A stretch of 64,000 nt of DNA from an uncultured Mollicutes bacterium (GCA_900550145.1 URRF01000001.1:19886-83885); one strand, 5' to 3'; shown: positions 20,601 through 43,342, counted from the first letter of the stretch. Made by a program: numbers and translations. Notes: generated from the sequence alone by a model not told the origin.

Positions 20601-23600
20601 TTGTTTATCACCATTAATATTAACTAATTTACCATTTTTATCTTCTTTCCAGCCCATATTAAAAAGAAGTTTTTTAAAATCTTCTTTAATATTAGCGCAA
20701 TAATTTTTAAAGAAAGTATCAATATAAGGTTTAACAGATTCATTAGCATTATCACAAATCTTTTTAGTAATTTGCACACCGGCTTTATTTTGAGCATCTT
20801 TCATGTGCTCTGGAACATCTTGTTGTTTATAAAGAAAACGATAATAATAATCTTCTATAGCATTTTCATTATTAGAAATAAGATCTTGTTCAAAATTAGG
20901 ATTAATATTTCCATCATTATCCCAAAATGTTAAAACGTTCTTTTTAGCAGCTTTACTTGTTTCATTAGTATTAACTTGCCCAATATCATATTTGTGCATG
21001 AAATTATAAAGCTCTTTAAGTTGAGTTCCTTCAAGAAGTTCAGGAATAAGAACAAATTCAGCATTTTTAATTTGACGAGGATAATGTACTCCAGTATAAC
21101 TATCATATTTATGGTCATAATAAAAATTCTTCTGTACTTGAATACGAGAATTAATTTTACTAATATCTATATCTTCAATTCTACGTTGACCACTTCTAAG
21201 TTCATAAAGTTGTTGAAATATATCTTCATATTCTTTAAAAGTGCCATCAGCATAACGTCTACGCATAAATTCTTCAATAGTAATAAAAGACTGTGCGTCA
21301 TTAGTTTTACTTGCTTCTCTATATCCATTAGCAATTTCAGCAGCTTTTTTAGTAGCAGCAACTTCACCAAGTTCATCTTTAAGATAATTAAATAATTCTT
21401 GTTGAATATTATTAGCTTGTTTACTTGGTCTTACAGTATTATTAATAGTAACAGCTCTAAAACCATTACGAGCATATTTTCCAGCAGAATGAATTATTGC
21501 ATAACCCTCTACGGGGGAATAAGCATTAGCGTATTTATCTATTGTAGTATTGCCAAATTTAATTTCTTGTTTAGAACCATTATATCCAATAGTTTCTTTA
21601 ATTTTAGCACTAAGAGTATCATTAATATCAAATCCAGCATAGGCTGTTCCACCAGCTTGTACTTCTTTAGCACGTTTAAGAAAATCTTTAGCGTCTTTAT
21701 AAAATTTAACATCACCTTCAAGAAAATCATCTAATTGCATATAAGCATTAGCAGCATTAAGAGCAAAATCAACTAAATCTTCATTACTTTTTTGTAGTTC
21801 TTGAAGAATATTTTGATATTGTTTACCATGAGCTACAATCTCTTTATTAAAAGATTTAATCCATTGTTCAACAATATTATCTATAATACTTTTTACTTCT
21901 TGAGTTTCATTAAAAACAATTTTACCATTTTCAATTCTAATAAGAGGACTATTAACATTTAAAGTAGCAGTATTTCCTTTAACTTGAATAAGTCCTCCGG
22001 CTTCGCCTACGGACGTTCCCCCGTAGAGAAGTAATGCACGTTCAAGCTCTTCACCTGCTTTATAATCCTCTGTATTAAATAGTTTTTGAAAGCTAAAGAA
22101 ATTTCCACTTAGTTTACCAGCTTTAGGGTTAAGTTTAGTCTTTTCTTTATCAAGCCATTTACCTTCAACAAGAATACATTCTCTACCTTTATCGTCATAA
22201 GTAGTTTTATTAAAATGTACTCTTTCAATTAATCCATTAGTGTCTTTACGAAGAACCCAATTACCTTTACTATCATTATCAAATAAATAAGTTAATTGAT
22301 TAATAAACATATTAAGTTCTCCTAAAACATTTTGTCTAAATCCAGCAAATATAGGAGTAGCTCGATTAATACGAACATCTATAGAACCATTTTCAATACC
22401 TTCTTGTTTAATAATATCTGCTATATCGGCATAAAAATCATCACTAAGTTTATTATCGTTAACTGAAGAAATACCCTCTATTTCTATATTATATAAAATA
22501 TTATTTATTTCACCTTCAATTTTATCTCCTTTAATCCAAACAATATCGGGACTATCTTTAGTTTTATAAATTATAGGAATAGAAATAGTACCATCTTCAT
22601 TTTCAATATAATAATATTTATTAAAATTAAGAGTAGATAATTCTCCTTTAATAGCATAATAAATATCTTTAGCAGACCAAATATTATTTTTATTAGTAGC
22701 AGCTTTATCTTTAACTTCTAAATATTTATCATAATTTTCATCTGTATTTTCTAAAGTATAATTATCTATTTCATTACGTCTTTTATTAGCGTATTTAGCG
22801 ATATCTGTAGCTAAAGCTGTAATTGTATTTTTAGCATCAAGTTTAGGTGCTTGGATAATAAAATTTTTAGGAGCGTCAGAAGGAGTACGGAAAAAATATC
22901 CAGCTTGAGAAGCATTTAAACTTGCTTTAGAAGCACCAATATTTTGTCCAGCAATAATAGGATTAAAGTAAGCAATCATAGAAGTAGCAAAATAATCTCC
23001 TTTGGACATTTTAGCATATAAAGCCGCTTTATCACTTTGCATATCTTTAATACCATTAAATAAACTTATTTGAATAAGTTTTTGAGCATTAGGATTAATA
23101 GAGACATTATCTCTATCATCTCTCATAAATAATCCTTCTTGAATATATTTACCATTAGCTCCTTTAATTCCCCAAAAGAAACTATTATATTTATATTGTT
23201 CTCCTTTATTAATTTCTTCTAATAGATTTCTTAGACCAGCTTGAGCATCTTTTTTATTAGCATAATTAATTTGTTTGAGAAGATTAGTAATATAACTATT
23301 ATTAATTACATCAGAAGATAAATTACCTTCAGCGTTAACACTATTTAATTCATTACGAACAGCAGAATAGTTAACAAGTTTTTGACATATATTAACTATT
23401 GGTTCATTAAGTCTATCGTAATTAATATTAGAAGAATCAAATAAAGGAACATCTTTAGTATATTTTTGACCAATTTCTTCAGAATATCTTACAGCTTCAT
23501 TATAAGCTTTTCTTTCATTATTATATTTATTATATGATTCATTATATTCTATAACAGTAGTTTCAACTTTTTGTAAAAGATCTGCTATATTATTTAATAG

Positions 23601-25229
23601 TCCAATCATATTAGACCTAACAGAATTACTCCCATTATAAATAAATCCAAGTATTTCATTACGAGTTACTTTAGGATAATATTTTTTAAGTACTTCATAA
23701 ATAGTTTCTTCTATTAACTTATTTAATTCTTTAGGAGTAACATCGTCATCTTTAAGTCTTACAGCAACAAGTCTATCAGAACCTTTATCTAAACGGGCAA
23801 CTAATTCTTTAACACGATTAATATCATTTTCTGTATATAAATCTCTCATAGTACTACGAGTTGTATTTAACATATTATAAATCATATAACTCATAGCGTC
23901 TAAAGATTTATTAGATTGCTCAAAAGTAATACCTGATTCAGTAATAATAGACATTGTTTTAATAATCTTAGGATTACTTAATTGACAAAATATTCTATTA
24001 GCAAATACAGGATCATTAATACAATCATCGGCAATTTTAATTAATCCGTAATCTTCAGCAATATCTGTTGCCATTCTTACAATACTATCTATAAAATCAT
24101 TAACAGAATTAAAATTACCTCTTGTGTATAATTCTCTAATAATAAAATTAGCACCCATAGTAGTTTTAAGACCAATTTCATTATTAGTATCATAATTATA
24201 AACTTTTGTACCAACTTCTGATGGAGAATCTAATTTATAAATAGTATTAAAATATAATTTTAAATCAGCAGCAATAGGTTTTTCAAAACTTGCCCAAAGT
24301 TTATCTTCCCAAGATTTAGTAGTTTCATCAACACTTTCAGCTCCTGGATTAGTATAATCTTCATCATCAGTAAAATTTTCATTAGTAAGTTTATCACTTT
24401 CTAATACATTTTCAAATTCACCAACAATATTAACAAGTTTACTACTTTCAAATGCTTTTGTAAACCAAAAATTAGGATTACGCTTAATTTGTTCAATATA
24501 ATTATTACGATTCTTTTGTGTTATGTCACCAAATTTATTAATTAAATTATATGCCTTATTATATTGTTGTCTTCTTGCTTCAGTATATTCTTTATATACT
24601 TCATCAAGTTTCTTTTTATTATTTTCTACATCATTATCATTCTTAATAAGTTGTTTTAATTCATTAATTTTCTTATTAATAGATATAGCTTTATTATATG
24701 CTTCTCTAAATTCTTTAATAGTATTATCTTCTGTTTCTTTATTTTGATTATAAACTTTTAAAGCAATATTATTAATATAATCTTTTTCAAGAACGTCAAT
24801 AGCTTTTTGAATTATTTTAACTCTATTAAGTTTAACATTATTATATTTACTTGCTTTACGCTCTTGCTCATAAAGAAGAGAAATAATAGTAGCAGTATCA
24901 TTAATAGCGATATTACGAGCTTTAACACTACTAAATCCCATTAATAAATCAGCTTGACGTTTAGCAGCAGCTGTTGTAACATCTTGATGTTTAAGTTCAT
25001 AATATTCTTTTAAAATTCGTCTAACAGTATTTTGTTTATTTTCTAAAATAGACTTAGTAGAATCAAATTTTTCATCTTTTTTACAAAACTCTAAAAAATC
25101 ATCACTTTGAATATATCCAGCAAGCACTTTAGCTTTCTGTTTAATACCGTCAGAACAATACTCTACGGTTTTCTTAAGGGTGTCATTAACATCTCCTTTA
25201 ATAACATAACCAAATTCAAAACATTCCAT
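11610..25229 (-). CDS. giant virion protein (4539 aa) containing a crAss-type RNA polymerase DxDxD motif
   Basis: Uninterrupted 13.6-kb ORF. DFDVD at aa 1748-1752 (nt 19974-19988) sits in the context QTGSDFDVDSVYG, like the metal-binding DxDxD loop of the two-barrel virion RNAP described for crAss-like phages (phi14:2 gp66 type). A hydrophobic segment lies near the C-terminus (LYGILSALLLGVTIYAM). Carries three GC-rich motif copies. Confidence 0.75.
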   Translation of the reverse strand: MECFEFGYVIKGDVNDTLKKTVEYCSDGIKQKAKVLAGYIQSDDFLEFCKKDEKFDSTKSILENKQNTVRRILKEYYELKHQDVTTAAAKRQADLLMGFSSVKARNIAINDTATIISLLYEQERKASKYNNVKLNRVKIIQKAIDVLEKDYINNIALKVYNQNKETEDNTIKEFREAYNKAISINKKINELKQLIKNDNDVENNKKKLDEVYKEYTEARRQQYNKAYNLINKFGDITQKNRNNYIEQIKRNPNFWFTKAFESSKLVNIVGEFENVLESDKLTNENFTDDEDYTNPGAESVDETTKSWEDKLWASFEKPIAADLKLYFNTIYKLDSPSEVGTKVYNYDTNNEIGLKTTMGANFIIRELYTRGNFNSVNDFIDSIVRMATDIAEDYGLIKIADDCINDPVFANRIFCQLSNPKIIKTMSIITESGITFEQSNKSLDAMSYMIYNMLNTTRSTMRDLYTENDINRVKELVARLDKGSDRLVAVRLKDDDVTPKELNKLIEETIYEVLKKYYPKVTRNEILGFIYNGSNSVRSNMIGLLNNIADLLQKVETTVIEYNESYNKYNNERKAYNEAVRYSEEIGQKYTKDVPLFDSSNINYDRLNEPIVNICQKLVNYSAVRNELNSVNAEGNLSSDVINNSYITNLLKQINYANKKDAQAGLRNLLEEINKGEQYKYNSFFWGIKGANGKYIQEGLFMRDDRDNVSINPNAQKLIQISLFNGIKDMQSDKAALYAKMSKGDYFATSMIAYFNPIIAGQNIGASKASLNASQAGYFFRTPSDAPKNFIIQAPKLDAKNTITALATDIAKYANKRRNEIDNYTLENTDENYDKYLEVKDKAATNKNNIWSAKDIYYAIKGELSTLNFNKYYYIENEDGTISIPIIYKTKDSPDIVWIKGDKIEGEINNILYNIEIEGISSVNDNKLSDDFYADIADIIKQEGIENGSIDVRINRATPIFAGFRQNVLGELNMFINQLTYLFDNDSKGNWVLRKDTNGLIERVHFNKTTYDDKGRECILVEGKWLDKEKTKLNPKAGKLSGNFFSFQKLFNTEDYKAGEELERALLLYGGTSVGEAGGLIQVKGNTATLNVNSPLIRIENGKIVFNETQEVKSIIDNIVEQWIKSFNKEIVAHGKQYQNILQELQKSNEDLVDFALNAANAYMQLDDFLEGDVKFYKDAKDFLKRAKEVQAGGTAYAGFDINDTLSAKIKETIGYNGSKQEIKFGNTTIDKYANAYSPVEGYAIIHSAGKYARNGFRAVTINNTVRPSKQANNIQQELFNYLKDELGEVAATKKAAEIANGYREASKTNDAQSFITIEEFMRRRYADGTFKEYEDIFQQLYELRSGQRRIEDIDISKINSRIQVQKNFYYDHKYDSYTGVHYPRQIKNAEFVLIPELLEGTQLKELYNFMHKYDIGQVNTNETSKAAKKNVLTFWDNDGNINPNFEQDLISNNENAIEDYYYRFLYKQQDVPEHMKDAQNKAGVQITKKICDNANESVKPYIDTFFKNYCANIKEDFKKLLFNMGWKEDKNGKLVNINGDKQTLDFTDFYKKARIEAQRLGMDSNFIEYLTPDEFGNPAMPNYMNNVSSKLESIAQAIFNSSITRQKFPGWHAAQVTQVGHGMKVLDNNGKLRELKYHPKVIVNKETGVKIEETEYDKLSDEDKNKYEVKQEAYAEVMIPRWSNLIPNTPEALEMIQKEGLDIQLAYRIPTEGKQSVSIVKVVGFLDDVYGSTIMLPDEWVAQTGSDFDVDSVYGVCHSLKVVKDKNGNIKRIKKYSADDFKTDYAKYKYYIEDNINNKISSDIEDDFHEDKYKVLQKRLRDVVKKLRTEKDNRDSLYKELTNIGKEAGLLTFNEFSKLDEVDKLPRVVRNNNILDAMIAIMADSNSREENYSRSNFDRLSSAMKEMDKARGADSVSRSVYNPFDQMDFMENAMGGASLKAFSVTRDTFNSVNNYAKGYLGKGHEIIAEYDLTEKDANGKFIYDAEMIVKAYGLYNETTKKGDVILLDKDGKKTNEIDKAATARVKHYRLANSYNNRNVVGELITVYSSQTTAHILDAIKEGSIFNENEFTFGTFKTLIDTGMDYRTAIAFLMQPAITTINEVNNESNSLYLTGGGNTVQKAVKRIAAKAGFKLGATDITDYSNYESVLLALNSNEQFRNAYKELFGAEISTQKPIQEQQFTLNAKVLKSRLESSKITNISELSQKDNDIKNAVFDIAICLAFDKINKTTKNLEKVLRCCNPDNFGAKQTIRETRTIVDNVIAYGFTDNEVGNTVMCGGKRLIEKLYPEFIKIEKNEVSDLDELVRGDIDIENSVYPFLAAFFKYATLTSVDVNKQLFPTENDVYNAVLNAVQVKLGVVFTPKQYREYKQYMMNMIYSQVPMLNTPLTVTKEGWLNDNNEAIVKSTENDTNYWNAEISRIFGFETTQKINFDIKDIFNPTEEELSKFNTLTPAQKISWIQTHIDGDLGIFNYLNVNLNNQFELKRKGFTHQSIKFTDSAENIDDIYIEFGTSFFNKSPIFRLAIADLIKYAFVVDGFKFKRGAVDKIITNNSLYKNIEDMGTGIVPAIREIFGYYTNPASAVTNEFIDKFIRSHKEYCKSIKLGKPENNKGISNTAFQFNICNKGNGLIFIPFDGRFKTLLNEINVENTKSPQDYIVVNRSTGDNKISTLYKIDKHESGVYLIPMNLLEPNETGDYSVNPNNNKYGDISFYNTVIAEAESIGAKEYFIDKDNKVKLKDKYKEHIIPRYKFNLENNAIDNVNEFQNVSVNGTEIQKAELNKLFKDVETYIQSPVEEKGDYGVVRSNSFYISEQVGKTDIITQNIPTENGNILVTIRRYSPSPAFKSNLHKDLINNVSSNNTENVQKVRIEERDAYRSALASKTESHKYYKIEHITEESVREEFEKQQQENRDNFNDEAYAITTDITDDYIDNANRITEVDETSVAMIAALRRAEKRGDDIAAKALRKLDIKGINSYRSKDIKDNRRNIYHILSDYISSYADMIDKQMKYYVIGDKEYNIGESDLYEVLRSNPDEVSNIVKLLLEAITFGDTFGNIMSLPIDGMDEDTKRYIQKIRDSINKIRNSSIIKQGFDNMFNKYIANEFANNPNIRMNVVNLKDTFGDSGWWETNIGDIAMLSNKQVQVIVKIVNRIMNQAAMQDAPRKKNEFLKRFDNILDKSGSFRWENIINSNGQLIRPYTAKFLTDRDKLVDAVKDALDRYGIDSKEYIAAKLKRDEWYADNVEQHVVREYYIKKNALIREIFETAPEEYRQYMEYIHEKFIDDQPNSALTTQERNRRREIDKKINQLTSEYKDTETLKSPEERERAIKLKNFIKAKSALDKEYFDYNDTDEFKENLEKNLAIIKHYEKNNPTQTLDKRLENIEYRSAYEWIKNNSYYVINKEAKDKINEAFSILKDEDNLNSAKIKKIIDDANAYDEFGNIDARKLSDKDIATIKVLTKHKYDFSYDSNAGEAILIKDIPNNLPIFDDSFYRMLRDPSENEKEVNPRRIKIIGRINELLGKTITAVEFGGDGRIHAKDIFTKLTEEEREELANLYNALRNIKGKRKPKEIRQKFKQEVEFKTNNTAFNTELSWALSNLKGTKDFDTFINIFCQLDNSGEIILDDNGNYTPNNDIYGYIEPKNDKYINKKKTAARELIENNVDFIPNEYYYAAMNEASNNGDFKEWFDVNHVYNPYKHKFEPLRVWTEMKVNPEGSLKGTYSYVPTNENAEKQVKDEYVNKKYKKYSNNYNRDNGHYNNYVTLSPKEKEMQSLLQETMDFFAEHNKHNTFVEQGYIPRRRKVVTDTKWVVNQLLGVTGLEFRNDSEDRWNAKVDYANDYEVENDMLKLLKGKGYQELEEIRPKGIGEKDENYRKYLQDTKKKNEEIKKHNLEIDKQLFDKDYRSVFAEAISNQVVINARNKAKNWLYLLQEDLKNTEAVKISKFTGRPVINKRTSVDIQDNYHTISQDNTLKQVYGFTRRLIFEQFKEKSKLNKYADLARNITSAKYMIFNVTGGISNIGTGFANIMGEAFAGDNLSKNDIREAIGMYMNNSLRMIGDMYKDKSDNFAVALTKYFKVVDFDAMTERVRGETAGEYARRMRNLMYSLQSGGEHFMQNTVLFAVLKSNKIFDDVDGVKRCGSFSEYIWKLEYDTMVSIISKDKDLLEELKEFKRIIKQDKTEQFKYDTFKHNIIEDFLRAHASKEIIQEYIHAKNQAIKKAKEEWKTKPAIIDLLELKNGEIVPKAGAEITPDMINDIKNKTVNLNKKIHGVYDKLGAALIEFTWWGSLVMQYHKHLYPGVMKRFRRRGYYNEQTNTIEVGSYVAFVDFLSKEFRNVVSDAKKQGDGYVGIAVASVQNTFKAVINTITNIKTNWNLMSPWERNAVKRCLGDLYGILSALLLGVTIYAMTDDDDEKESNVVATGLYLADRLLSESQMYTPWGLYSEGKTLWSSPIAAYNGPSDLIKIMDYTARWLFDEDFDPVYSTGIYKGRNKIDVLVKRNIPLYRVIERLNNMTKNNSYYRINEKALNMKISKYIADQINPD
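16845..16860 (+). repeat. GC-rich motif copy (CTCTACGGGGGATTGA)
   Basis: Exact 10-mer, inside the 4539-aa gene. Sense (minus) reading IQSPVEE. Confidence 0.9.
21507..21518 (+). repeat. GC-rich motif copy (CTCTACGGGGGA)
   Basis: Exact 10-mer, inside the 4539-aa gene. Sense reading YSPVEG. Confidence 0.9.
22017..22028 (-). repeat. GC-rich motif copy (TCCCCCGTAGAG) with a GC-rich flank
   Basis: Exact 10-mer, inside the 4539-aa gene. Sense reading LLLYGGTSVGEAGG. The adjacent CTACGG (22007-22012) can pair with CCGTAG (22021-22026). Confidence 0.9.
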
Positions 25230-25324: not shown

Positions 25325-28300
25325 TTATCTACATGCGTATTTAAGTTCGCCATTTCGCAGCATTTGAGCTATTAACGGCTTGTCCTGCTCCGAGTAGCTA
25401 TTGAGATAGTCTGCCATGTTATTAATTCGAGTAATATCCAGAGTTTCAGCAATGATATTACCGTCATTATTTTTAATAGCATTAATATTCTCTATATCAG
25501 AAGTAATTGACAATAGTTCATCAGAATTATCATTAATAGTGTTATAATCTTCATCTTCAACTATATCAGAATCATAACTATCTTCACCAAATTCATTATC
25601 TTCTTCGTTAATATCTTCTTCTATAATTTCAGATTCTTTAGTAATATCTTCACCAACATCTTTATCAGACAATACTTGATTATCTTTAATATCTTGTTTT
25701 ACATCATTTTCATTACTTATATTATTATCATTAATATTTAATATCTCATATTGACGAGCAAATATAGTATTGTTTTTAATACTATTATCTTTTATATTAA
25801 ATATTTTAAGTAATATATCAATAATCTTTTGAAAAATACTTTTCTTTTCATTATCTTCTGTAACAACAGCAACACCTTCTCCAGTATATTCAACTTGATT
25901 CAAATACTTAATAATACTACTTTGAGATAAACTTTCAACAAGCCATTCTTCAGCAAATACTCTACGTTGTTCATCTTCGGAAAGTTCAACATAACTATCT
26001 TTTTGTTTAGCTTTAATACGTTCAAAATAATCTTTAAAAGTAAAGCCATTATCTTCAATCCATTTCTTAATATTAACAGCTAAATTATAACGTTCGCTAT
26101 TTCTATCACCATAATCAATATCATGCTCAACAGCTTCAATGAATTTATTATAAGTTTCAAACAAATCGTCTATAATATTTTCTTTATCAAAAAGATTATG
26201 TTCATCGATATGTGCATGAAGTTGTTCATGAATAAGTAATCGAACTAATGTTGTAGGAGAAGAATTAGCTAAATTAGAACCAGCTTTAGTAAATATAACA
26301 GCTTTTTTATCTCTATTATATTTAGCGTTACCTGTTTTATCTTTTTTATCGTAATAATAAACGCCAGAAACAATAGGAATACCATAAACATTTTTACCAG
26401 TAAGTAAATCAATAGTTGATTTTGGAATAGCAGCTTTTTCAAGAAGACGTTCTGTAGAATTAGCTTTTTCAAGAGTAGCGGTTTGAATAGTATTAGCAAT
26501 TCCAATAATTGATTCTTCCTCTACGGGGGATTGAACTTGATCAGGTACAGCAAGAGTAGTAACATTAATATACATAGAAGTAGCTTTATCAACATCATTA
26601 AAGAAACCTCCATACTTATTAACTCCTTGATTTGTATTAAAAGCATTATTTTGAAGAACAAAATCTCCAAAATTATCATATACAATTTCGCTATTTCCAA
26701 GTTTAACTACAAATTTATTATCTTTTTTAAAGAAATAAGGATTATCTGTAGTATTACCATTACCGATATTATTAAGAGTAAAGAACGTTCTATTATAAAT
26801 AGTATTATTAGTTATTTCTGTAGCAATAATATTTATAAGTTTATCATTAACATTAATAAAACTTGTAGTTTTTGAATTATCACCTGCGGGATTATAAGTA
26901 ATCCCTGTACCCAATTCATTTGAATTACCAGCTTTAAACTTATGTATAATAACGTTAAATTTAGAAGTATTATGACCAATAGAAAGAATTATTTGATTAT
27001 TAGAACTAATAACATCATAACCGTAAAATATACTTGGGAATTTAGTATTAGCAGAATTAAACAATAAACCAAGTTTATCTCTAACTTCTTCAAAAGTATA
27101 TTTTTTATTTTGAAAACCAGTTAAAATATCAACAAGTTCTTTATGAAGATTTTCTTTAATTTTACCAGCAATTTTATTAGCACTTGTAAACATAGCTATA
27201 ATAGGCGTTTTGCCTCTACCTCCAATTAGGAAACCCATATTACCAGCAAGAAAAGGAGCAGTAATTTGTTGTTTCTCGCCTGTTAATTCATTAATAGCAA
27301 CTATACCATTTTTATCACTATCGATACCAATAATAGCATGTTGATCAGATTTAAAAGGTAATTCATTAACACCTTTTTCAGTATTTTCAATAATAACATC
27401 AGAAGTTTCTTTTACACCTTGATTTGTTCCTGTTTGCCCAGCATATTTAACAATAACTTTTTTGCCATTAGCAGTAAGAGTTCCAATTTTATGAGTATTT
27501 TTATAATTATTAAAAATATTTTCTTTCCATTGTTCATAACTATCTTTATATTCTTCAATAGTTTGAGCTAAAGGATTATAGAAAATAATATTTTTAAGAT
27601 TATAAATAATACGTTTAGCTTTATCTATATCGCTTATTAAAGCAGGATCAAGTTTAATTACTTCGTCTTTAATAGCTTTTTGAATAACTTCACTATTATA
27701 GATTCTTTCATATTCTTCTTTAGTTAAATCATATCCATAACCTAAATCATAAAGATTCTTCTTATGGAATAAATCCCATAATTCATTTTCATTATTAAAA
27801 ATAGCTTCAAATAACTCATCTGTATTAGCTTCAACTTGATTATTTATTTTACGAACGTGATAATTAATTCCACCTTTTGGGCCAAGTTTTATTCTATAAC
27901 CATTATTATCACTATCTGGAATAACATTAGAAATAAATCCAATTTCAATACCTTTACGCTTAATAGCAAAAGAAACAATTTCATGATTTCTGCTTTCTAT
28001 AGGAACAATTTCTAAATCATCTCCTACTTGTAAAGCATTAACAACTTGTTCATAATTAGGACTTCTATTAACACGAGAAGGAACAATGTGCATATAATTA
28101 TCAATAAATTCAACTCTTTTGCTTGCTTCATAAACGGCATTATAAAAATCTGTAGGATTATTAAGTAAAGTATTAAGACTACGCTTATGAGTAAATACAT
28201 AATTAGTATTATAAGAATTATTAATAAAATCTTTTATATTATATAATATATGATAAGCAGTTTGAACATCTAAATCTAACATTTGTTTATTAGCATCATC

Positions 28301-31300
28301 AGATAATATTTCAATAATATCTTTAAATAAAGATTCAAGATTAATAATAACTTTTTGATTTTTAGTAACAATATTTCCTTGATGATCTTTAGTTTTAATT
28401 TTATTTATAGTAATACCTTTATATTGAATATATGCTTCAATAAAATCTTTAATTATTTTATCAAATTCAGTATCTTCAATAGTAGTCGTAATAGCGTTAA
28501 CTTCGTCGTTATCATTAGATTTAATGGTTACTTTTTGTTTAGTAGCAAGAGCTTCAGCAAGACGTCTAAAAGTTTCAGTTTTACTATCTTTACGTCTTTC
28601 TAAAGCTCTAACTATTTGCTTCATTCCCATATTAACACCTCTTTGGGTAGCATGAGGTGCTACTTCTGGACTAACACCTTCTTCGATAAGTTGTTGAGTA
28701 ATAGTTTCTATAATATTTTTAACTTCTGGACTATCACTACTTTTATTTAAAGCATCTTCAAACATATTAGGAGAAGTTCTAAAAAGAAGAAAAGTTTTAC
28801 TACTTGCAATACCTACAGCTCTTTCATTAATACTTGGGTCAAAAGATTTAGCTAATTTAACAGCGTCATCTAAATCTTTATTAGTAATTTTATCTTCATC
28901 TTCAATAATTGCTTTAACAGCAATTTCGTTAGGATCAGTAGTTTGCTGATTAGTTTGAGTTTGAGAAACTCCACTTCGTGGAGTTTGTTCCCCCGTAGAG
29001 GAGTTATCAATATTAGATGGTTGATTATTACTAACTTCTGCAGCCACATTATTAATAACTTCTGCTTGTTCTTCAGTAACTTGTTTACCATTAACTACTA
29101 CTTTTTTAGCATCTTCTTCTTTTTGTTTTCTATTTTGTCTTTCCTCTTCTATTGTAGCTCTTATCGAATTACTAAAATCTTCAGTATTAAAATATCCTAT
29201 TTTAAGCATATCGAGAGATTCTTTTAATTTAGGAATTCTATTGCGAAGAATATCTTGCCATGCTTTATCTAAATCTTCTTGTTCTTTAATCCAATTTTCA
29301 ACTCGAGTCGCAGCTTCTGACATTCTTTTCATAGTAAGATAATCAACTTGTTGGGCAATAAGGCCAACTCTATCATTATAATCTTTTTGAGATTTAGGTT
29401 GAATATTTTCTAAATCAGCTTTTTTATCTTGAAGTGCAACTTGTTTATCAATTAAATCTTTAACATTATTAGGAGCTTCAGGAATATTTTTATCAGATTC
29501 GTTAATAAGATTTTCAACATTGTTTAATATAGTTTGAATATCACCAGAAAGTCTTTCGGCTTGATAATTTTTTCCAATACTTTGATTAAATATATCAATT
29601 ATAGATTGTTTATTAGATTCAGATAAAGGATTATTATCATTTAGAAATTTAAGAAGACCTCTTTTTCTATCATTATAAATTTTATTATATTGATTTTTAG
29701 CTTGTTCAGAAATATCTGGATTGTTGTTAACTTCTTCTTGAGCTTGATTAATTTCATTTAGTAATTTAGAAATATGTTTATCAATAGCTTGTCTTCTATA
29801 TTTATCAATAGAAGATATATCTACATTACTTTTATTTATTTCATCTTGTATAGTATTAATTCTATCTCCAAAAGATTCAATTTCTAATTGTTCTCTTGTA
29901 AATTCTCTTGCAGCAATTTTAGCAGTATATTCACTTTCTATTTCGCTATTATATAGTACGTTATATAGATTTTCAGCATATATATCTCTAACTTTATCCA
30001 TTTTAGCAAAAGCTTGATTAGTAAAATCTTCTTCAGATTTAGTAAGTTGAACTCCAGCTTCTCTAAAATATTCTTTAAATTCAGGACTTGTAACATATTC
30101 TTTTAATAAATCATAAGTGCCTGCTTCATAAGCGTTAATAGCTAAATTAGTAAAATAATCATCAATAACTTGTTGTTTTTTAATTTCAGCTTCTTCTGGA
30201 GTAAGTTTTCTATGAACATCAACTCCTTCATCTTGAAGTCTTTCTCCAGTAAGAGGATCTTCAACATAATCGTCTGGAGAAATATAATCGTTTAACATGG
30301 TAAGTTTATCAACAACATCTTTATTTAAAGCAGCACGGTCTTGAATTTCTTTATTCATTATTTTTTCTTCAGCAGTAAGAGTATTAAGAATATTAGCATC
30401 AGATTCTTTGCCTTTTAATTTTTTAGCTTTAATTTGTCGTTGAAGAGCAGAAAGTCCTTTACCAGCTCCTTGAAAAACCATACCCCCAACAGCACCCCAA
30501 AATGCTTGTTCCCATATTTTATCATCGGTAATATAACTTTCAATTGTACGAGGAATATAATTAGGATCTAAATACATTTTAGCAACTTCTTTACCTTTTT
30601 CAGTTTGAATACCTTGATATGCTTCTTCTAAACCTTCAGTAAGTTGTAAAGTACCAATAGTATTAAGAGGATGTTTAATAGCTTCTTTAAATTCATCTGT
30701 TCTATTTTTCCAAAAACTTGTTTTAGGAACAGTTGAGGTAGAAGTTTGTCCAGATACGTTTGTATCAGCTTTTTTACGAAGAGCTTCAATTGCTTGTTTA
30801 TTAGAACGTCTAATTCTTGAAGTAGGTAATTTTTTACCAATTTTACCAAATAACTGGCCAACACCTCTAAATTCTACAATATCTTGACCAAGCATAGCAT
30901 AATTATTAATAAAAGTTTTATCAGCAGATTCCCCAGCAATATATCTTGCTATTTGATCAATAGTTTTACCATTTAGTTCAGGATTTCTTGCAAAGAAGTC
31001 TTTCCATTGTTGGTCATTATATCCTTCAAGTTCTTGTTTAGTAAGTTCATAACTTTCTGTCCAAACACCTCTTGATTCCATATAATTTTCCATAGTACGA
31101 GAAAGAACAGCATTAGTAGTTAAATTATTAATATATTTAACAGAATTATCAAGACGAGCAACTGAAGGAGCTTTAATACCAACTCCTTTTATAGCTTTAT
31201 GTGTAAGTTTAGCTAAACCTCGCGTAGAAGCATTATATGCTCTTCTTACTTTACGAATTTTTCCTAATGTACCAATAGCTTTAGTGATACCAAGAGTAGG

Positions 31301-34619: not shown

Positions 34620-36824
34620 TTAACTGTTTTTATTTCCGTATGCTCTCAACCATGATTCTATCATGTCATTTGTTATACCTCTTACACCAAGAGCTTTTAA
34701 TATAATAGGATTAACGTTAGGATTTGCAGCAGCAATAGCTCTAATATTATTTTCAGTAGCTAATCTCTTTTCAAAATTACCAATACTATTTTGTACTCCA
34801 GCATTAATACTATTAATCAATCCTATAGTATTTTCAGATTGTTTTTCAATAATAGCATTTTCAAAAGCATTTTTCTTTTCTTTCCAAGTATTATAATTAG
34901 TAATGTTTTGATTAACAACAGCTTGTTGATTAAGTTTATCTTTATTAATTAATTCAGTTTCAGTATTTTCTTTATTAGTATAAATATTATTAAGTAATTT
35001 AATAGTATTTAATCTACTAAGTTGTTTTCTACCTAAAGCGACTCTTGAACTTGCAGTATTAGCATCAATTTGTCGTTCATACGCTTGCTGTTGATCTCTA
35101 ATAGCATCAAGTTGAGGATTAATATTAATATTTGTTTTAAGTTTAGAAGGAATTAAATTAACAGGAGCTTTAGTATATTTCATTTTATCTAATGCTTTCT
35201 TATTAGCATTAAATCCTATAATACTTCCAATAATATTTGAAGCAATACCAATACCATCGCTAATTAAAGAATTATAAGTTCGTTTATTCACAATATCTTG
35301 TTTATTATCATATTTACGCTTAGTATTTAAGTCAACACCTGTAGTAGGATTAAATCTACCATTAGTATCAAGAATATCATATTTGATTCTCTCTACGGGG
35401 GATTGATAATTAACAATTGGTTGATTAATTTTATTAGTCAATTCATCTTCAAGACCTAAAGTATAAAATGTAGGATCAAGTGTAATAGGAATTTCAGTCT
35501 TTTTAGTACCACCTGTTCTGAACTCTATTCGTTTCCCCGTAGAGGGAATCATTCTTAGACTTGTCTTACCATTGCTTGTAACTGTATAAACACCACCATT
35601 TTTAGCACGTTTACGAAGTTCAGGATATTTAGAATAAACTTTAGTTTTAATATCATCACGTCCATGAAGTCCTGCAAGTCTTAACGCGTCAACAGCATCA
35701 GCTTTTGTAGGAATTGGATAACTTCTATTTTTACCAGCAAAATCTTTTTTATCTACTTTAGGATAAGGTTTAGATTTAGAACCATAATCTTTAGAACGAC
35801 TTAAACCACCCATAAGTTTTTTATTTCTTTTTTTATAAAAATCATTAACTAAACTATCTCTATTAGCTAAACCAGCTTCTTTATATATTTTATTAATTTC
35901 TTCTCTAACTTCATCATCAGTACCTCTAAGAATAGCTTTTTGCATAGGAACATATTTTTTATCTTCAGGATTGAAATATTCTCTTGCAGTTCTACCACTT
36001 CCTCTATTATAAATTAAATTAGTAAGTAAAGCTTCTTTAGTTTCAGTAACATCACCTTCATCATTATAATATTTACGAATAAAATCTATTCTTCGTTTAG
36101 CACTTTGATTTGCACTTTTAATTCTTTTAAATCTTAAATCTCTTTCATCTTCTTCAGTAATATATTCTCTTCCTTTAGAATCTTTTTTAATTTTATCACT
36201 AATATTACCTCCTGTATATCTATCTACTCCCATTCCAAAATTATCTTTATCAAGACCTTTACCTTTAGGAGCATACCATCTTCGAGTATCTTTATCAAAA
36301 CCTATACTATCAGGATTTTCAGAATGATTAATTAATTTACCAATTTCAGTAGTATCATAATAAGGTGTATAATCTGGACTAATAATAGGATTTTCTAAAG
36401 TAGAAATATTATTTGCTAAACTTTGCATTTCTCTAATTTTTTCAAAACTATTTTTCTTAGTACCATATCTACTTTTATTTTTTCTATTTCTATTATTCTT
36501 AGTACCATCATCATTAATATTATTAACATCTTTATATCTTTCTTGAGCATTAAAAACTTTATTAGGATTATTTCCTTTCATAACTTTTTCAGCAGGAGAT
36601 TCACCATTAAGAAAAGGAACAGAACTAAACACTTTAACTTCAGTAGGAGATATGTGCATAACTTCTCCATCTTCAACTTCTAAACCAGTACGAGGATTCT
36701 TGCCAATATCAATACCACCTTGTTCATGTTTTCTACCTTTCATATAGTAATAATTCTTTTTATTAGGAATAGGTATAGCAACACCACCACGAACTATATT
36801 AGGTCTAAGTCTTTTATTACTCAT
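34620..36824 (-). CDS. large virion-associated protein (734 aa), possible lysozyme-like segment
   Basis: Long ORF. The segment HSENPDSIGFDKDTRRWYAPKGKGLDKDNFGMGVD...LIYNRGSG loosely resembles the E...D...Y..G..T(I/F)G.G pattern of phage lysozymes, which is weak. Carries an inverted pair of GC-rich motif copies 157 bp apart. Confidence 0.6.
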   Translation of the reverse strand: MSNKRLRPNIVRGGVAIPIPNKKNYYYMKGRKHEQGGIDIGKNPRTGLEVEDGEVMHISPTEVKVFSSVPFLNGESPAEKVMKGNNPNKVFNAQERYKDVNNINDDGTKNNRNRKNKSRYGTKKNSFEKIREMQSLANNISTLENPIISPDYTPYYDTTEIGKLINHSENPDSIGFDKDTRRWYAPKGKGLDKDNFGMGVDRYTGGNISDKIKKDSKGREYITEEDERDLRFKRIKSANQSAKRRIDFIRKYYNDEGDVTETKEALLTNLIYNRGSGRTAREYFNPEDKKYVPMQKAILRGTDDEVREEINKIYKEAGLANRDSLVNDFYKKRNKKLMGGLSRSKDYGSKSKPYPKVDKKDFAGKNRSYPIPTKADAVDALRLAGLHGRDDIKTKVYSKYPELRKRAKNGGVYTVTSNGKTSLRMIPSTGKRIEFRTGGTKKTEIPITLDPTFYTLGLEDELTNKINQPIVNYQSPVERIKYDILDTNGRFNPTTGVDLNTKRKYDNKQDIVNKRTYNSLISDGIGIASNIIGSIIGFNANKKALDKMKYTKAPVNLIPSKLKTNININPQLDAIRDQQQAYERQIDANTASSRVALGRKQLSRLNTIKLLNNIYTNKENTETELINKDKLNQQAVVNQNITNYNTWKEKKNAFENAIIEKQSENTIGLINSINAGVQNSIGNFEKRLATENNIRAIAAANPNVNPIILKALGVRGITNDMIESWLRAYGNKNS
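35391..35405 (+). repeat. GC-rich motif copy (CTCTACGGGGGATTG)
   Basis: Exact 10-mer, inside the 734-aa gene. Sense reading YQSPVER. Confidence 0.9.
35533..35547 (-). repeat. GC-rich motif copy (TTCCCCGTAGAGGGA)
   Basis: Exact 10-mer, inside the 734-aa gene. Sense reading IPSTGK. Inverted partner of the 35391 copy. Confidence 0.9.
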
Positions 36825-36940: not shown

Positions 36941-36941
36941 A

Positions 36942-37577: not shown

Positions 37578-40500
37578 AATCGACTTATTTTATAATTAAG
37601 AGATTCAAAATCAATACGTCTATTTTGCATAAGAAATTCAAATTCAATAATAAAATAATTACCATAAAGTCTACTCATAACTATAGCAGATTGATCTTCT
37701 TCATTACCAATCATGTTACGAAGATAACTAAAATTCCAATTACCTAAATCCCAATAAGGTTTTTTATAATTACCAAATATATTTTTATGTTCATTAGGAT
37801 CAACACTTTCGTTATCAACAGTAATATTTATATCATTAGTATTAACATTATCGTTATAAACTCTAAGCCATTGTCCAGCATAAGGAGTATCTAATTTCTT
37901 TACGGGGGAAGGAACATCACCATTTACAGATTCATCAATTTTATAAAGTTTATAAGTAATATATTCTAAAAATTTAATAATATCATATCCTTCATTAACA
38001 ATAAAAGATAATTTACACATATTATTATACCTTTCATTAGCAGAAGCATATCTATAATTATTATTATAAGTGCAATAATTATTTATATTTTCAGTAAAAT
38101 TATAAACAGCATCATAAATTGAATTATTACTTTTAAAACTATTAATAAAATAAACTTTATTTTTACTATTATAAGCATCTCTAAAATAATAACTATGTCT
38201 AGAAATAAAATTTTGAGTTTTATAATTATAACTAAGAACTAAATTACGTTTTTGAATAAAAGTACTATTATCTTCATTTTTTCTAAAAATATCATAATCG
38301 AACTTAATAAGTAAACGATTATTTCTAATATCATGAGCAAATCTTACATTATTAGGTTTAGCTTTAACAAGCCATTCTGCGATATCATTACTAATAATAA
38401 CTAATTGATTATTATCAAATCTATAAATATTATTATCGTCGTTATTATAAAATATATAACCAAATTGGTCAACAATAGCACTTCGTTTATCTTGAAGGCC
38501 TCCATAACCTAATTCAGAAGTAAATACTTCTTTATAAGCAACATCAAAAGCATCTGGTTGATGAAGTTGAATATTTTGGTCAATAGTTTTAAGTTCATTA
38601 TTTAAATCAAACATAAAAAGACTATGTTCAGTATGAGCTAAAACTAAATTACCAATTCCAACTAAATTAATAATAATACCTTTATTTTCAGTAATATTTT
38701 TATATGCTTCTAAACCAAATTTTCTCCAAGCATTTTCTCTTGATTCATCTTGAATAATATTACTTCTACGAATAGTTTTATTATAAATATCAATATATTT
38801 AATATCGTCTCTATAATTACTATAAGTTTTAGGATTAAATTGATCAGAACTACCTTGTCTATTTTCAAATAAATCGATAGAATTAGCTGGTGTAACCATA
38901 TAGCCTGTTCTATATTGAGTAGAATCTTTATCATTACCTAATTTAGTTACATAAGATTGAGGTTTAGGTTCATTTTTAAAACATTTACTTTCATGAAAAA
39001 CTGTATCAATAACAGGTATTTGTAAATAACACATAAATGGCCTATCATTTTCATAAGTTTTATTATGTTCCGGAGAAACAGTAGTAGGATAATATTGATA
39101 TTCAGTGTTTTGCATAGTTACAACACCATTTGTTTCATTAAATACTACTCCACTATCAGCATATATAATAGTACCACTATAACTATAAACACCGTTAAGA
39201 CCTGTACTAATAATTCCAGTATTATTTTTGTTATAAAAAACATCAGTAAATTTAATAAGAATTTTATTATTATTATTATATATATTAGGATTATCTTTAA
39301 CTAAAGAAACTCTATATAAATTAATATCATTATTTTTCTTTTCAGTAGCATTAACAAAAAGATCATATTTATTGTCAATAACTATACATGTACCTACACC
39401 AAGACGATTATCTTTTACAGAATTAGCAACAGCTAATTTATAATTAGGCATAGGATATAATTTTTCAAAATTATAATCTTGTAACTGAAGTTTATTCATA
39501 TCAGTAACAAATCCAAATGGAGCATTTCTTTGATAATAATTAATATTAGGAATATCATCATAATCAAAAACGTTTTTACCTTCAATTCTAAGAAAATCAA
39601 AATCTAATTCTAAAGTATCATCTATATCTAAACTATCACAATAAAAATTCATAGTATTAGAACTCATTGTATTTAATGAATCTTTTTTAACTACATTATC
39701 AGCATGATTATATATTCTTAAATTACCGTTTATAATTTCTAATTTGTTATAATTACCATTAATAGTTGTACTAGTATTTATTAATCCATCAATAATTATT
39801 CCAGAAATACTTCCTCCACCATTTTCAATTACACCATAAGCTAAATTTCCATCAGTTATTTTATTATTAACTATTTTAACGTTATATATAGTGCCTGAAT
39901 ATAGTTTTACAGTACTATGATTATTAACCCCTTTACTAATAGTAATGCTTATTAATTTATAATCAGTATAGTCAGTATCTTTTTTAGCAATAATAGTATC
40001 TGTATTTCTAAAATCGTTAATAGTAAGTAATCCTGTATATTTATTTCTTTTCTCAAATTTTTCATAAGAAATAAAATAACCTATATAACCATTAGGTATA
40101 ATAATATTATTAAAATAAGGACAATAAACTCTATGACTATTAACATCTATATTATTAAACGGAACTTTAAATAAACTATCTCCATTACTATTTATATAAT
40201 TATCAAAACCATATTCGTTAGTATTTATATAATTATTAAAAGTAAATATTTTATAAAATTCATAGTTTAAATTTTGATTTAGAAAATGTTTTACAGAATC
40301 AATTAATTTATTTTTAATATAATCATAATCTTCTCTTCTAATTTCATTTTGTATTTCTCTATTTAATTCTTTAGTAATAAAATTATAATCAGCATAATAT
40401 CTAATCATATGATCAGCAGGATTTTTATAATCATTTATAATATAACCTGAAGTTAACTGTGTTTTAATTATAATATCATTTATTTTAGCAGTTTTATCAA

Positions 40501-42393: not shown

Positions 42394-42407
42394 AGCTATT
42401 TTTAGCT
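42394..42407. promoter_or_regulatory. AGCT-N6-AGCT mini-palindrome, copy M6 (AGCTATTTTTAGCT, followed by CTATATTTAATC)
   Basis: Ends 42 nt upstream of the ATG at 42352 when read on the minus strand. Near-identical to M1 over about 21 nt. Confidence 0.45.
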
Positions 42408-42470
42408 CTATATTTAATCTTGATTTAATCTAATATAATTAATCACTTACTAACATAAAATTCAATATAA

Positions 42471-42484
42471 AGCTAATTTTAGCT
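42471..42484. promoter_or_regulatory. AGCT-N6-AGCT mini-palindrome, copy M7 (AGCTAATTTTAGCT)
   Basis: Lies 77 nt from M6. Read on the minus strand it is AGCTAAAATTAGCTTTATATTGAATTTT, and its 3-prime flank matches the M1 flank CTATATTGAATT. Confidence 0.4.
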
Positions 42485-42499
42485 ATTCTCGTTTATTTA

Positions 42500-43342
42500 T
42501 TATCCTTTTGGATTAAAAGTGAAATTAAAGAACGCATTGCGCCATTGTTTGTGAGCACTATCAATATCTTGTCCACGATTAATAACAGAACGTTTAGCTT
42601 CTTCTTTAAGTTGTAACCATATATAATAAGGATTAGTACCATATTGAGAAGCACCAAGATTAAATACAGGATGCTTATATCCACGACATAACATTTTATA
42701 CATGCAATAAAAACCAATAGCTTCTACAAGAATTGCATTATCTGGAATAACAGGAAATTCACAACCGTAAACTTTACTACGTTCAGTTTTGATAGTATCA
42801 TATTCAATAGTAATACAATCAGTATCAAAATCGAGTTCAATTTTATTACCATCTATTATAACAAAATTATGAGTACGATTAGTTGTTTTACCAACATAAT
42901 TATACTCATTCACTCTATATCTACCAGGCCATTCTTTATCATTAAGAGTTTCAGCAAGAAGATAATCTGGAACTTTTGACGGATTATCATTATGATAAAC
43001 ATCTGTTGTATTTACTGCGTTAGAACTGCTCGTTTCACTCGCAGGTTCCCCCGTAGAGGAGCAACCATTACAACCTCGTTCACTATTAGCTTCTTTTATT
43101 TCACAACCTTTACTATCATAAACTTTAATATTAGTATTAGCTATTGGACAAGCACTAATTGCTATTCTCTCCTTTACGGGGAGTTGAACTTTAGCTCTTT
43201 CAGTATTTAATATATTAAGTTGTCCCATAACTTCTAAAGTCCAAACTCCAACTCTTGGAATCCAATCACTATTATCGGGATTAAAATCATTATCTATCTT
43301 AGCAATAATTCTTTCTATATTAGTTGTATCTTGTTTAATCAT
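42500..43342 (-). CDS. tail/virion module protein (280 aa)
   Basis: ORF immediately upstream of the 1592-aa gene. Contains a locally GC-rich Cys/Ser-rich segment (ERGCNGCSSTGEPASETSSS) bracketed by an inverted pair of GC-rich motif copies. Confidence 0.6.
   Translation of the reverse strand: MIKQDTTNIERIIAKIDNDFNPDNSDWIPRVGVWTLEVMGQLNILNTERAKVQLPVKERIAISACPIANTNIKVYDSKGCEIKEANSERGCNGCSSTGEPASETSSSNAVNTTDVYHNDNPSKVPDYLLAETLNDKEWPGRYRVNEYNYVGKTTNRTHNFVIIDGNKIELDFDTDCITIEYDTIKTERSKVYGCEFPVIPDNAILVEAIGFYCMYKMLCRGYKHPVFNLGASQYGTNPYYIWLQLKEEAKRSVINRGQDIDSAHKQWRNAFFNFTFNPKG
43028..43070 (-). repeat. GC-rich motif copy with an extended flank resembling the right arm of the intergenic element
   Basis: Core TCCCCCGTAGAGGAG at 43047-43061. 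The blocks TGCTCGT, CTCGC and AACC flank it in the same order as at 10047-10105. Sense reading CSSTGEP. Confidence 0.8.
43171..43189 (+). repeat. GC-rich motif copy, one mismatch (CCTTTACGGGGAGTTGAAC)
   Basis: Inside the 280-aa gene. Sense reading VQLPVKE. Inverted partner of the 43047 copy. Confidence 0.75.

Follow-up and report, generated by a model that had tools for sequence, protein, structure and literature searches.

Genes and features of the window

We analysed a DNA stretch of 64,000 nucleotides (nt) deposited under an uncultured Mollicutes bacterium (GCA_900550145.1, URRF01000001.1:19886-83885; hereafter, the window, with positions counted from its first letter), in which the 10-nt word CCCCGTAGAG recurs both within and between genes. 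The window is a crAss-like phage of Intestiviridae. Its GC content is 26%, and its capsid region is ~75% identical to that of Carjivirus communis and other Crudevirinae. A sequence-only reading had pointed to three intragenic copies of the word whose flanks resemble one or the other arm of an intergenic element at 9974-10096, and had proposed that short structured DNA segments were inserted or copied in frame into genes. The genes bearing these three copies were named via annotated relatives and all lie on the minus strand. They encode the giant virion RNA polymerase of the crAss two-barrel type (11610-25229; 4539 amino acids), a polymerase-associated protein fused to a zincin protease (25325-31861), and a ring protein, also named "tail tubular", with the Pfam domain CrAss_Ring_1 (42500-43342).

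Recurrence of a short core word

The 10-mer is present in 12 exact copies and in four further copies with one mismatch, against an expectation of 0.18 for the 64-kb window. The constant part of the signal is a 12-nt core, CCCCGTAGAGGA, which carries lineage-specific extensions. Two copies bound the intergenic element: the left one is on the minus strand at 9974-9983, reading CTCTACGGGG on the plus strand, and the right one, CCCCGTAGAGGAG, is on the plus strand at 10084-10096, 35 nt upstream of the open reading frame (ORF) 10131-10598. The three intragenic copies with conspicuous flanks are on the plus strand, antisense to their genes. They encode L-Y-G-G in the polymerase (22019-22028; residues 1068-1071), S-S-T-G in the zincin-fused protein (CCCCGTAGAGGAG, 28991-29003; residues 954-957) and S-S-T-G in a predicted disordered loop of the ring protein (CCCCGTAGAGGAG, 43049-43061; residues 95-98).

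The other copies consist of the core only. Those in sense orientation are found in the genes for DNA ligase (1611-1620, plus strand; residue 82), the RNA polymerase (16845-16854 and 21507-21516, minus strand, both read as SPVE, the latter forming an inverted pair with 22019), the zincin-fused protein (26519-26528, minus strand; SPVE) and a 734-amino-acid protein (35391-35400, minus strand), and, with one mismatch giving the GTAAAG form, in those for a P22 gp10-like protein (37898-37907, minus strand) and the ring protein (43172-43181, minus strand, inverted pair with 43049). Antisense core-only copies are located in the genes for deoxynucleoside monophosphate (dNMP) kinase (4037-4046, minus strand, one mismatch), the 734-amino-acid protein (35535-35544, plus strand; PSTG, inverted pair with 35391) and an 809-amino-acid protein (61971-61980, plus strand; VSTG). 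The virion-cargo and tail genes carry one core copy per 2-6 kb. The late region encoding capsid, portal and terminase (43200-61900) has no exact core; a single out-of-phase match with one mismatch, at 56959, is possibly due to chance.

Within genes, the core is read in three frames in total. Sense copies nearly all encode (S/L)-P-V-(E/K) and antisense copies encode x-S-T-G or L-Y-G-G, and the frame that would yield TAG is used by no copy in the window. The codons concerned are rare there, with CTC accounting for 1.3% of Leu, TAC for 3.7% of Tyr, GGG for 3.0% of Gly, ACG for 2.8% of Thr and CCC for 4.3% of Pro codons. From codon usage, the spelling found for each core tripeptide would be expected at a frequency of 1e-5 to 8e-4, and that of CTC TAC GGG at 1.4e-5.

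Conservation of the core in other crAss-like phages

Many crAss-like gut phages, the prototypical crAssphage among them, have the signal at matching places, genes included. This rare-codon spelling is kept at orthologous sites in phages whose proteins are 21-97% identical. At the polymerase LYG site, usable alignments were obtained for 30 loci, with local identities of 23-97%, and 29 of these have CTC TAC GGG. In the zincin linker, CTCTACGGG(G), read as (S/P)STG, is kept in ~40 lineages with identity down to 21%. The sense PVE core at 26519 falls in one alignment column with its counterparts in cr3_1, ctbg_1 and Carjivirus, and the ligase core lies at residue 82 in the window versus residue 80 in Carjivirus. 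In the ring protein, S-T-G is 96-99% conserved among 115 homologues, compared with 21-55% for its neighbours in a stretch that is otherwise hypervariable.

Carjivirus communis (L128 and L129) holds 31 copies of CCCCGTRGAG, and no other 10-mers are more strongly over-represented in it. Their consensus of 20-22 nt is (G/T)AC(C/T)CCCCGTRGAGGATGGA; many copies are likewise carried by cr3_1. Eleven of the 31 Carjivirus cores are intergenic, whereas intergenic DNA makes up 6.3% of the genome (P=2e-6). The variants GTAGAG (n=16) and GTGGAG (n=15) are nearly balanced, and the A/G position switches between strains at one and the same site, for which reason the idea that the two Carjivirus RepL proteins each read one core variant was rejected. 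The flanks of the Carjivirus cores would also allow CTCC...GGAG pairing across the core.

Two lineages with ~60-68% identity in the ring protein have their own dialects of the core: GCCCGTAGAGGGA at all three sites in one (L421; 10285, 14958 and 16933) and CCCTGTAGAGG at both sites in the other (L420; 4670 and 12172). Such concerted change suggests co-evolution with a reader protein, although the CG-to-TG case could also stem from a bias of mutation. No copy of the motif is present in the first 50 kb of crAss001 (Steigviridae). The top over-represented 10-mers in that segment (1-50000) are CCTTCTGGAG and TCCAGAAGGA, with seven copies in 50 kb, which may represent either a counterpart of the signal or a coding repeat unrelated to it.

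The pattern of conservation shows the core to be an old word, acting in cis at the level of DNA, that is vertically inherited, fixed in position inside and between genes and held under strong purifying selection. It is hardly credible, by comparison, that chance or protein-level convergence has produced the copies, with the tripeptides STG, LYG and PVE being selected and the GC-rich flanks amounting to compositional noise. Such convergence would fit the ring protein of the L420 lineage, which retains SSTG despite a one-base change in its core, and the fact that two of the three flank alignments within the window are non-significant (see below). However, it leaves unexplained why one DNA word is used in three frames with very rare codons, why 12 copies occur where 0.18 are expected, why the same word is enriched in intergenic DNA and why the L420 change is present at both L420 sites. 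The codon and intergenic data thus already contradict it, and the view of the sequence-only reading, that a signal at the DNA level and not convergent evolution of a 10-mer is involved, was borne out.

Flanking cassettes in the window

Windows of 30 nt with at least 60% GC form only five clusters in the 64 kb, and four of these correspond to the two intergenic arms and to the flanks of the copies at 22019 and 43049; the GC richness claimed for the flanks is therefore real for these two copies. The flank at 28991 has a lower GC content of 43%, but forms the hairpin of its own that had been predicted for it, with 9 bp in the arrangement AAACTCCAC-TTC-GTGGAGTTT.

Next to the left core of the intergenic element, a cassette at 9984-10008 (plus strand) has the stem CCAC (9988-9991)/GTGG (10005-10008) around GAAGCGTAGCGGA. 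It includes the heptamer GCGTAGC at 9995-10001 on the plus strand, the strand that also codes for the flanking genes. The right-arm cassette, GCTCGTCGCTTTGCTCCTCGCGATT, spans 10059-10083 on the plus strand; its complement contains GCAAAGC, and the close relative L127 has GCGAAGC instead. The two small ORFs that flank the element, 9634-9939 and 10131-10598, both start with a hydrophobic, membrane-like N-terminus, and neither has a convincing Pfam match, with one sub-threshold match for the 155-amino-acid ORF.

The polymerase-gene cassette (21995-22018, plus strand) reads CTCC-GGC-TTC-GCC-TACGG followed by a spacer and encodes TSVGEAGG; on the coding (minus) strand it is GGCGAAGCC, with GCGAAGC at 22000-22006. 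In the zincin-fused gene, the cassette at 28966-28990 (plus strand) consists of the 9-bp hairpin (ACTCCAC-TTC-GTGGAGT) and the spacer GTTC, and encodes QTPRSGV. Its coding strand reads CCAC-GAA-GTGG, and the DNA fold has a z-score of -3.8. The ring-gene cassette (43028-43048, plus strand), GCTCG-TTTCA-CTCGC-AGGTTC, is degenerate and without a stem; it encodes EPASETS and yields no significant fold. The flank of the 43049 copy is thus a stemless remnant in which both boxes are common with the right arm, and this is what the sequence-only reading had seen.

The individual matches on which that reading was based are all present. CTTCGTGGA at 28974-28982 recurs as its reverse complement at 9987-9995, with ACTCC ahead of both; the blocks TGCTCGT, CTCGC, TTCCCC(C)GTAGAGGAG and AACC follow one another in matching order at 43028-43070 and 10057-10105; GGCTTCGCCTACGGACG is located at 21999-22015; and the flanks encode the peptides TPRSG, GCNGCSSTGEPASE and YGGTSVGEAGG. 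To evaluate the resemblance, 40-nt flanks without the core were compared with the arms by Smith-Waterman alignment against 2000 shuffles. The flank at 28991 matched the left arm with P=0.002, while P values of 0.06 and 0.08 were obtained for 43049 against the right arm and 22019 against the left arm, respectively, and values of 0.05 to 1.0 for the flanks of the remaining core copies. Within the window, the claimed match between flanks and arms consequently holds for one copy only, that at 28991.

Cassette grammar and the mini-hairpin motif

Across phages, the cassettes follow a common grammar on the motif strand: GCTNC, stem, a T-N(1-2)-C loop, stem, TNCGC, a spacer of 5-8 nt and the core. The cassette is an optional module of 20-30 nt that faces the CCCC end of the core across this spacer. 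Its stems vary by site and lineage yet stay complementary, and include GAGTGC, GGCAC, GAGC, GGAC, GGAAC, GGTTGC, GCAGC, GCGGC, GGC, ACTCCAC or just GC. At least 10 distinct stems thereby occupy the same position, and the loops are always T-N(1-2)-C, corresponding to GAA, GTA, GCA, GAAA or GTTA on the other strand. Hairpins of at least 5 bp with T..C loops at 10-24 nt from a core are found at eight of 220 non-redundant sites, versus 0.5 expected.

On the strand complementary to the core, the cassette centre reads GCGAAGC, GCGTAGC, GCGGAGC, CGAAAG or GCGTTAGC. The mini-hairpin DNA motif described by Hirao is GCGNAGC or GCGNNAGC, with two G-C pairs and a sheared G-A pair (PMC13037366), and the cassettes match this sequence, as in the window with GCGTAGC at 9995 (plus strand) and GCGAAGC at 22000 (minus strand). 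Near-variants in the window are ACGAAGT in the 28991 cassette and GCAAAGC in the 10084 cassette. Between one and three GCGNAGC or GCGNNAGC units are present on the strand complementary to the core, often within a longer covarying stem, and some cassettes comprise three overlapping heptamers, e.g. GCGTAGCGAAGCGGAGC.

The heptamers are strongly associated with cores. In Carjivirus, nine of the 10 GCGNAGC heptamers, and nine of 11 when GCGN(1-2)AGC is allowed, lie 14-26 nt from a core on the opposite strand, a position that only 2.8% of the genome holds relative to a core; both GCGNAGC heptamers of the window are likewise near a core on the opposite strand. These results show that the flanks and the intergenic arms are parts of one modular cis-acting DNA signal which, where it falls inside genes, is carried in frame within variable, disordered stretches. 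In this respect, the description of the flanks as short structured DNA that is read through in frame is supported.

Apparent gain, loss and exchange of cassettes

The relatedness of flanks and arms becomes convincing, judged by sequence comparison, only once other phages are added. At the polymerase site, the cassette is confined to the species-level clade of the window, where it is strictly conserved. The window has LYGG-TSVGEA-GGLI versus LYGG-VD-GGLI in 47%-identical relatives, a net in-frame gain of 12 nt that creates GGCGAAGCC.

At the zincin site most lineages have no cassette, and four groups have different forms in a linker that is not alignable: CCAC-GAA-GTGG in the window clade, GAGCGAAGCGACGA in the L020/L486 group, GCAGC-GAA-GCTGC in L491 and GCGGAGCGAAGCGAAGC in Carjivirus. 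The presence of four forms at one orthologous site argues for selection for a hairpin and not for the spread of one mobile element. The 5' arm, AACTCCAC, already exists in 44%-identical relatives, and the inverted copy alone is new in the window, so the hairpin there looks like a local, home-made inverted duplication of a pre-existing arm, and not like the insert that had been supposed.

At the ring-protein site, the expected indel is not seen in comparison with 60%-identical orthologues, and the window flank has no stem, while Carjivirus has a true hairpin, GGAC-GAAA-GTCC. The suggestion that such segments might fall in surface loops agrees with an AlphaFold model of the ring protein, made with an alignment of 58 database homologues (mean predicted local distance difference test score (pLDDT) of 71), in which residues 88-123, comprising the motif and the cassette, have pLDDT <50 and no secondary structure and correspond to a segment that is hypervariable in the 115 homologues. 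A sequence search for a solved structure of the ring protein gave no match.

Identical cassettes are also seen at sites that are not orthologous. The right-arm flank of the intergenic element in L127 equals the intragenic cassette of the L020 group over 19 of 19 nt (CTCGTCGCTTCGCTCCTCG; the window arm matches 18 of 19), although that protein is only 26% identical, and the L127 left-arm flank equals the intergenic flank at Carjivirus 6023 over 20 of 21 nt. In crAssphage strain L255 (4581), the cassette of the Carjivirus 95866 site is GGAC-TTTC-GTCC, in place of GAGC-TTC-GCTC in other strains (L129 47266). The swap involves five differences, keeps the stem paired, and gives a form identical to the ring-protein cassette. 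From the identical cassettes and the L255 swap it follows that copying between sites happens, and the presence or absence of cassettes at orthologous cores is read as gain, loss or exchange. The proposal of in-frame insertion or copying therefore stands in part: the 12-nt gain in the polymerase and the copying of cassettes between sites agree with it, but the cores themselves are ancient, fixed in position and not insertions.

The insertion or copying proposed in the sequence-only reading, if taken as the spread through genes of a short, selfish palindrome that keeps the frame and does nothing for the phage, would be favoured by the identical 19-21 nt cassettes at non-orthologous sites in different genera, by the cassette swap in one strain, by the gain in RNA polymerase and by the location of cassettes within disordered, variable protein segments. 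We nevertheless regard it as very improbable. Cassettes occur only beside a pre-existing ancient core and are strictly conserved in the species clade; unrelated stems at the same site imply selection on structure; the DNA between paired cores is conserved coding sequence and not an insert; and there are no terminal repeats, target duplications or associated transposase. The cassettes measure 20-30 nt, not 100-150, and a mobile in-frame palindrome of the Rickettsia type is not supported.

Two related identities were rejected. A miniature inverted-repeat transposable element does not fit the ring gene, where the DNA between the paired cores encodes residues that are invariant in all orthologues, and the polarity of the pairs is not uniform. 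A host-derived element resembling repetitive extragenic palindromic (REP) sequences was sought by scanning bacterial and archaeal genomes for box plus core, and the matches listed were mainly chance ones in GC-rich taxa, with one from a Bacteroidales metagenome-assembled genome.

Orientation and strand of the signal

The orientation of successive cores tends to alternate in the window (12 of 14; P=0.013), in Carjivirus (21 of 30; P=0.02) and in cr3_1 (L122; 11 of 12), where the tests are not independent since these phages have sites in common. Within genes, the antisense core usually comes before the sense core. Simulated inversion between pairs disrupts the reading frame, so that the alternation is left unexplained by inversion; an invertible coding segment or intragenic inverton was rejected, as all three simulated inversions bring one to four stop codons.

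These arrangements bear on the possibility that the core is read in duplex DNA by a phage DNA-binding protein, much like the uptake sequences of Neisseria and Haemophilus or dispersed initiator boxes, for genome organisation, packaging, self/non-self discrimination or recombination, with the hairpins accessory or incidental. A site of 12-22 bp that is asymmetric, occurs in both orientations at about one per 3-4 kb and forms inverted pairs between genes while keeping conserved positions and permissive reading frames inside them would suit such a protein, as would dialects that shift in concert and the lack of the motif from the first 50 kb of crAss001, a member of another family. We hold this reading doubtful, however, because it accounts neither for a strand-specific cassette at a fixed distance nor for four forms at one orthologous site, does not predict the alternation of orientation, and comes with no identified candidate protein.

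Of the 18 cassette copies tallied, 14, among them every intragenic one, have the mini-hairpin on the coding strand. The remaining four, at window 10084, Carjivirus 28078 and 95866, and L027 719, are situated upstream of the start of a gene. This strand bias is in line with a signal acting in mRNA, which would contain UCCUCUACGGGG followed, after a spacer, by a hairpin whose loop is GNA or GNRA, and would serve in 3'-end formation, stability or processing, or in nut-like antitermination by a boxA-like core and a boxB-like hairpin, with sense and antisense cores of one transcript able to pair. Many intergenic copies are found 15-55 nt past a stop codon, close inverted pairs would form long intergenic hairpins (Carjivirus 22902/22929; cr11_1 11882/11923), and the alternation, with antisense usually ahead of sense within a gene, would permit pairing. 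All six Carjivirus intragenic pairs give A-U, G-C or G-U and never A-C at the variable position, which is not significant (P about 0.2). On the other hand, stems down to 2 bp and the exact GCGNAGC form are hallmarks of DNA, not RNA, stability (PMC13037366), and no G-U pairs occur among ~10 distinct stems. No U-tract follows the hairpins, ribosomes would unwind long-range pairs in ORFs, the core-only copies in both orientations are unaccounted for, and there is no match to an Rfam family. We consider an RNA element unlikely on these grounds.

Searches for known RNA features gave the following results. Rfam returned nothing at gathering thresholds, and only matches at chance level when these were relaxed for 9900-10200. 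An intrinsic terminator was rejected for the 9974-10096 element, which is unflagged in a scan of 9600-10800; that scan flags only 10678-10711, a bidirectional intrinsic terminator with a T-run after it, between the convergent genes 10131-10598 (plus strand) and 10737-11336 (minus strand). The arms of this terminator are core-like (AAGCCCGTAGCAGAC and, on the other strand, AAGCCCGTAACAAAC), having CCCGTA in common with the core, and the terminator may derive from two inverted motif copies that have decayed. The TTCAATC prefix of the sense copies resembles a T-loop, but a tRNA 3'-half or integrase attachment site was rejected, as ARAGORN reported one AT-rich false positive and the cassette loops are of 3 nt. 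The ARAGORN call, a 92-nt tRNA-Asn at 46348-46439, is AT-rich, lies inside the opposite-strand ORF 46008-46511, has no Rfam tRNA match and is almost certainly a false positive.

A possible role in initiation on single-stranded DNA

We tentatively favour a reading, to which we give somewhat less than an even chance, in which the signal is a single-strand initiation site for priming or for virion-polymerase entry. It would be read on single-stranded DNA, where the hairpin would mark or open the site and the core would be what is recognised, and either primer synthesis in replication or transcription by the injected giant virion RNA polymerase would start there. Three lines of evidence lead to this proposal. 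The natural contexts that a review lists for mini-hairpins are starts on single-stranded DNA, namely the primase origins of G4, St-1 and alpha3, the ssiA site of a broad-host-range plasmid and the promoter of the N4 virion polymerase (PMC13037366; PMC4496689). The homologous crAss-like polymerase gp66 is active in vitro on single-stranded DNA but not on M13 double-stranded DNA, and native phage DNA is a weak template for it; the study that described it found no motif of early promoters (bioRxiv 10.1101/2020.03.07.982082). Finally, some cassettes occupy predicted origin or promoter-like positions.

With regard to the last point, the cassette-bearing inverted pairs of Carjivirus at 28.1 kb and 95.8 kb coincide with the two extremes, maximum and minimum, of the cumulative GC skew, and each is upstream of a repL. 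The origin of Carjivirus has been predicted directly upstream of the first repL, with the top long-read coverage near there and the motif and hairpin unmentioned (PMC10983915), and one of the cassette pairs falls in this published region. The intergenic pair of the window is located at the GC-skew maximum, ~650 nt from a gene for a RepL-like protein of 199 amino acids (10737-11336, minus strand) with 28% identity to Carjivirus gp43 (E=2e-18). This protein is nearer to gp43 than to gp88, and its counterpart in cr110_1 is labelled 'transcription regulator'. Its gene is on the late-gene strand downstream of the polymerase gene in the window and is the last forward-strand gene in Carjivirus. The cassette hairpin strand is the presumed lagging-strand template, a relation that is confounded with gene direction.

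Several observations weigh against initiation on single-stranded DNA. Most core copies have no hairpin, so the core must work alone, and cassettes within late genes, if they were promoters, would give antisense RNA. The effects of gene direction, GC skew and presumed replication direction are not separable, and the strand bias may reflect transcription or coding tolerance; in-frame GCGNAGC yields peptides rich in A, E, R and S, which are suited to acidic linkers. The z-score of nearest-neighbour folding is significant in only one of 10 cassette segments. According to a review, the stability of mini-hairpins escapes the standard nearest-neighbour parameters (PMC13037366), and because the folding z-scores are weak we take the support for the hairpin from covariation and motif co-location. 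A RepL homologue was detected by tblastn in only nine phage records, which do not include the motif-rich cr3_1, such proteins diverging fast. The known users of such hairpins among primases and RNA polymerases are members of different protein families.

A narrower version seems improbable to us at present. In it, the crAss-like virion RNA polymerase, or else the phage primase, would recognise the core with its GCGNAGC cassette as a hairpin-assisted start code on single-stranded DNA that is common to the whole family. If it were true, the phages would use the code around origins and promoters and also at many internal positions, and would keep it even within genes, tolerating rare codons and unusual peptide segments. 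The prototypical crAssphage and its relatives belong to the commonest viruses of the human gut, and their origins of replication are so far predicted ones. Whatever its role, the 12-nt word, which shapes the use of codons at fixed sites of dozens of genes in different genera and in some copies bears a mini-hairpin of the classic initiation type, is a cis element that can be tested for a part in start-site choice by their injected polymerase and in replication, and its lineage dialects are usable for finding the reader protein. The system further provides a case of structure-selected DNA written in frame into proteins, with hairpin forms that differ at one orthologous site.

Comparison with known systems

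Full-text literature searches for the motif and for crAss motifs, promoters, inverted repeats and origins turned up no account of the signal, which is not proof of absence; the motif itself matched unrelated primers only.

The signal shares with the lambda-type nut site (boxA and boxB) its orientation along the direction of transcription and its layout, in which a conserved linear box is followed by a spacer and then by a short hairpin whose loop is GNRA-like. The nut site acts in RNA, however, and is present in one or two copies per operon near promoters, never intragenically in both orientations. REP sequences and bacterial interspersed mosaic elements (BIME), with their REP-associated tyrosine transposases (RAYT), are likewise dispersed imperfect palindromes that often form inverted pairs after genes and have a GTAG tetranucleotide. 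In REPs the GTAG is directly 5' of the palindrome, whereas the GTAG of the phages belongs to the core and follows the hairpin at a distance of ~15 nt on the 3' side of the same strand. Moreover, REPs are confined to extragenic DNA while many phage copies are intragenic, and no Y1 transposase or RAYT gene was seen in the annotated relatives.

The palindromic elements of Rickettsia and the GC clusters of yeast mitochondria are similar to the cassettes in being GC-rich hairpin DNA placed in frame in tolerant segments of an AT-rich genome, with some presence/absence polymorphism. The Rickettsia elements, of 100-150 bp with a long palindrome and repeated in near-identical copies, differ from the 20-30 nt cassettes, which have an ancient core attached, stems that differ by lineage and no sign of autonomous spread. 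The core itself recalls the DNA uptake sequences (DUS) of Neisseria and the uptake signal sequences (USS) of Pasteurellaceae, each a 10-12 nt word that is hundreds- to thousands-fold over-represented in both orientations, with intergenic inverted pairs, intragenic copies in permissive frames and conserved positions, and lineage 'dialects'. In contrast to these, the carrier is a phage and not a competent bacterium, the density is ~tenfold lower, a hairpin module is adjacent and no receptor is known.

The N4 virion polymerase promoter comprises, at the centre of an inverted repeat, a GC-rich heptamer with a sheared G:A loop, variable stem bases, a 5-7 bp stem and a 3-nt loop (PMC4496689). A minority of cassettes are alike in having stems of 4-9 bp and GAA, GTA or GCA loops (window 28991; Carjivirus 28078, 93668 and 95866; L019; L027), while the stems of the others are 2-3 bp. 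The geometry of the N4 promoter, with a template-strand hairpin ~11 nt upstream of an early-gene start, is found in only four cassette copies, the other 14 being antisense within or after genes, and the N4 enzyme is a T7-like single-subunit polymerase in contrast to the two-barrel enzyme of crAss phages.

The comparison with mini-hairpin initiation sites has its differences as well, in that the partner of the hairpin is a 12-nt core that is mostly hairpin-free, and there are 15-31 copies per genome, mostly intragenic and in both orientations. The likeness, however, extends to the same heptamer or octamer (GCGAAGC, GCGTAGC, GCGGAGC, CGAAAG and GCGTTAGC), with a G...A loop closed by C-G. In both, the motif often sits in a covarying stem of 4-9 bp and is strand-specific and beside conserved sequence, and some of the phage copies are in a predicted origin region and just upstream of genes, in viruses that inject their giant polymerase.

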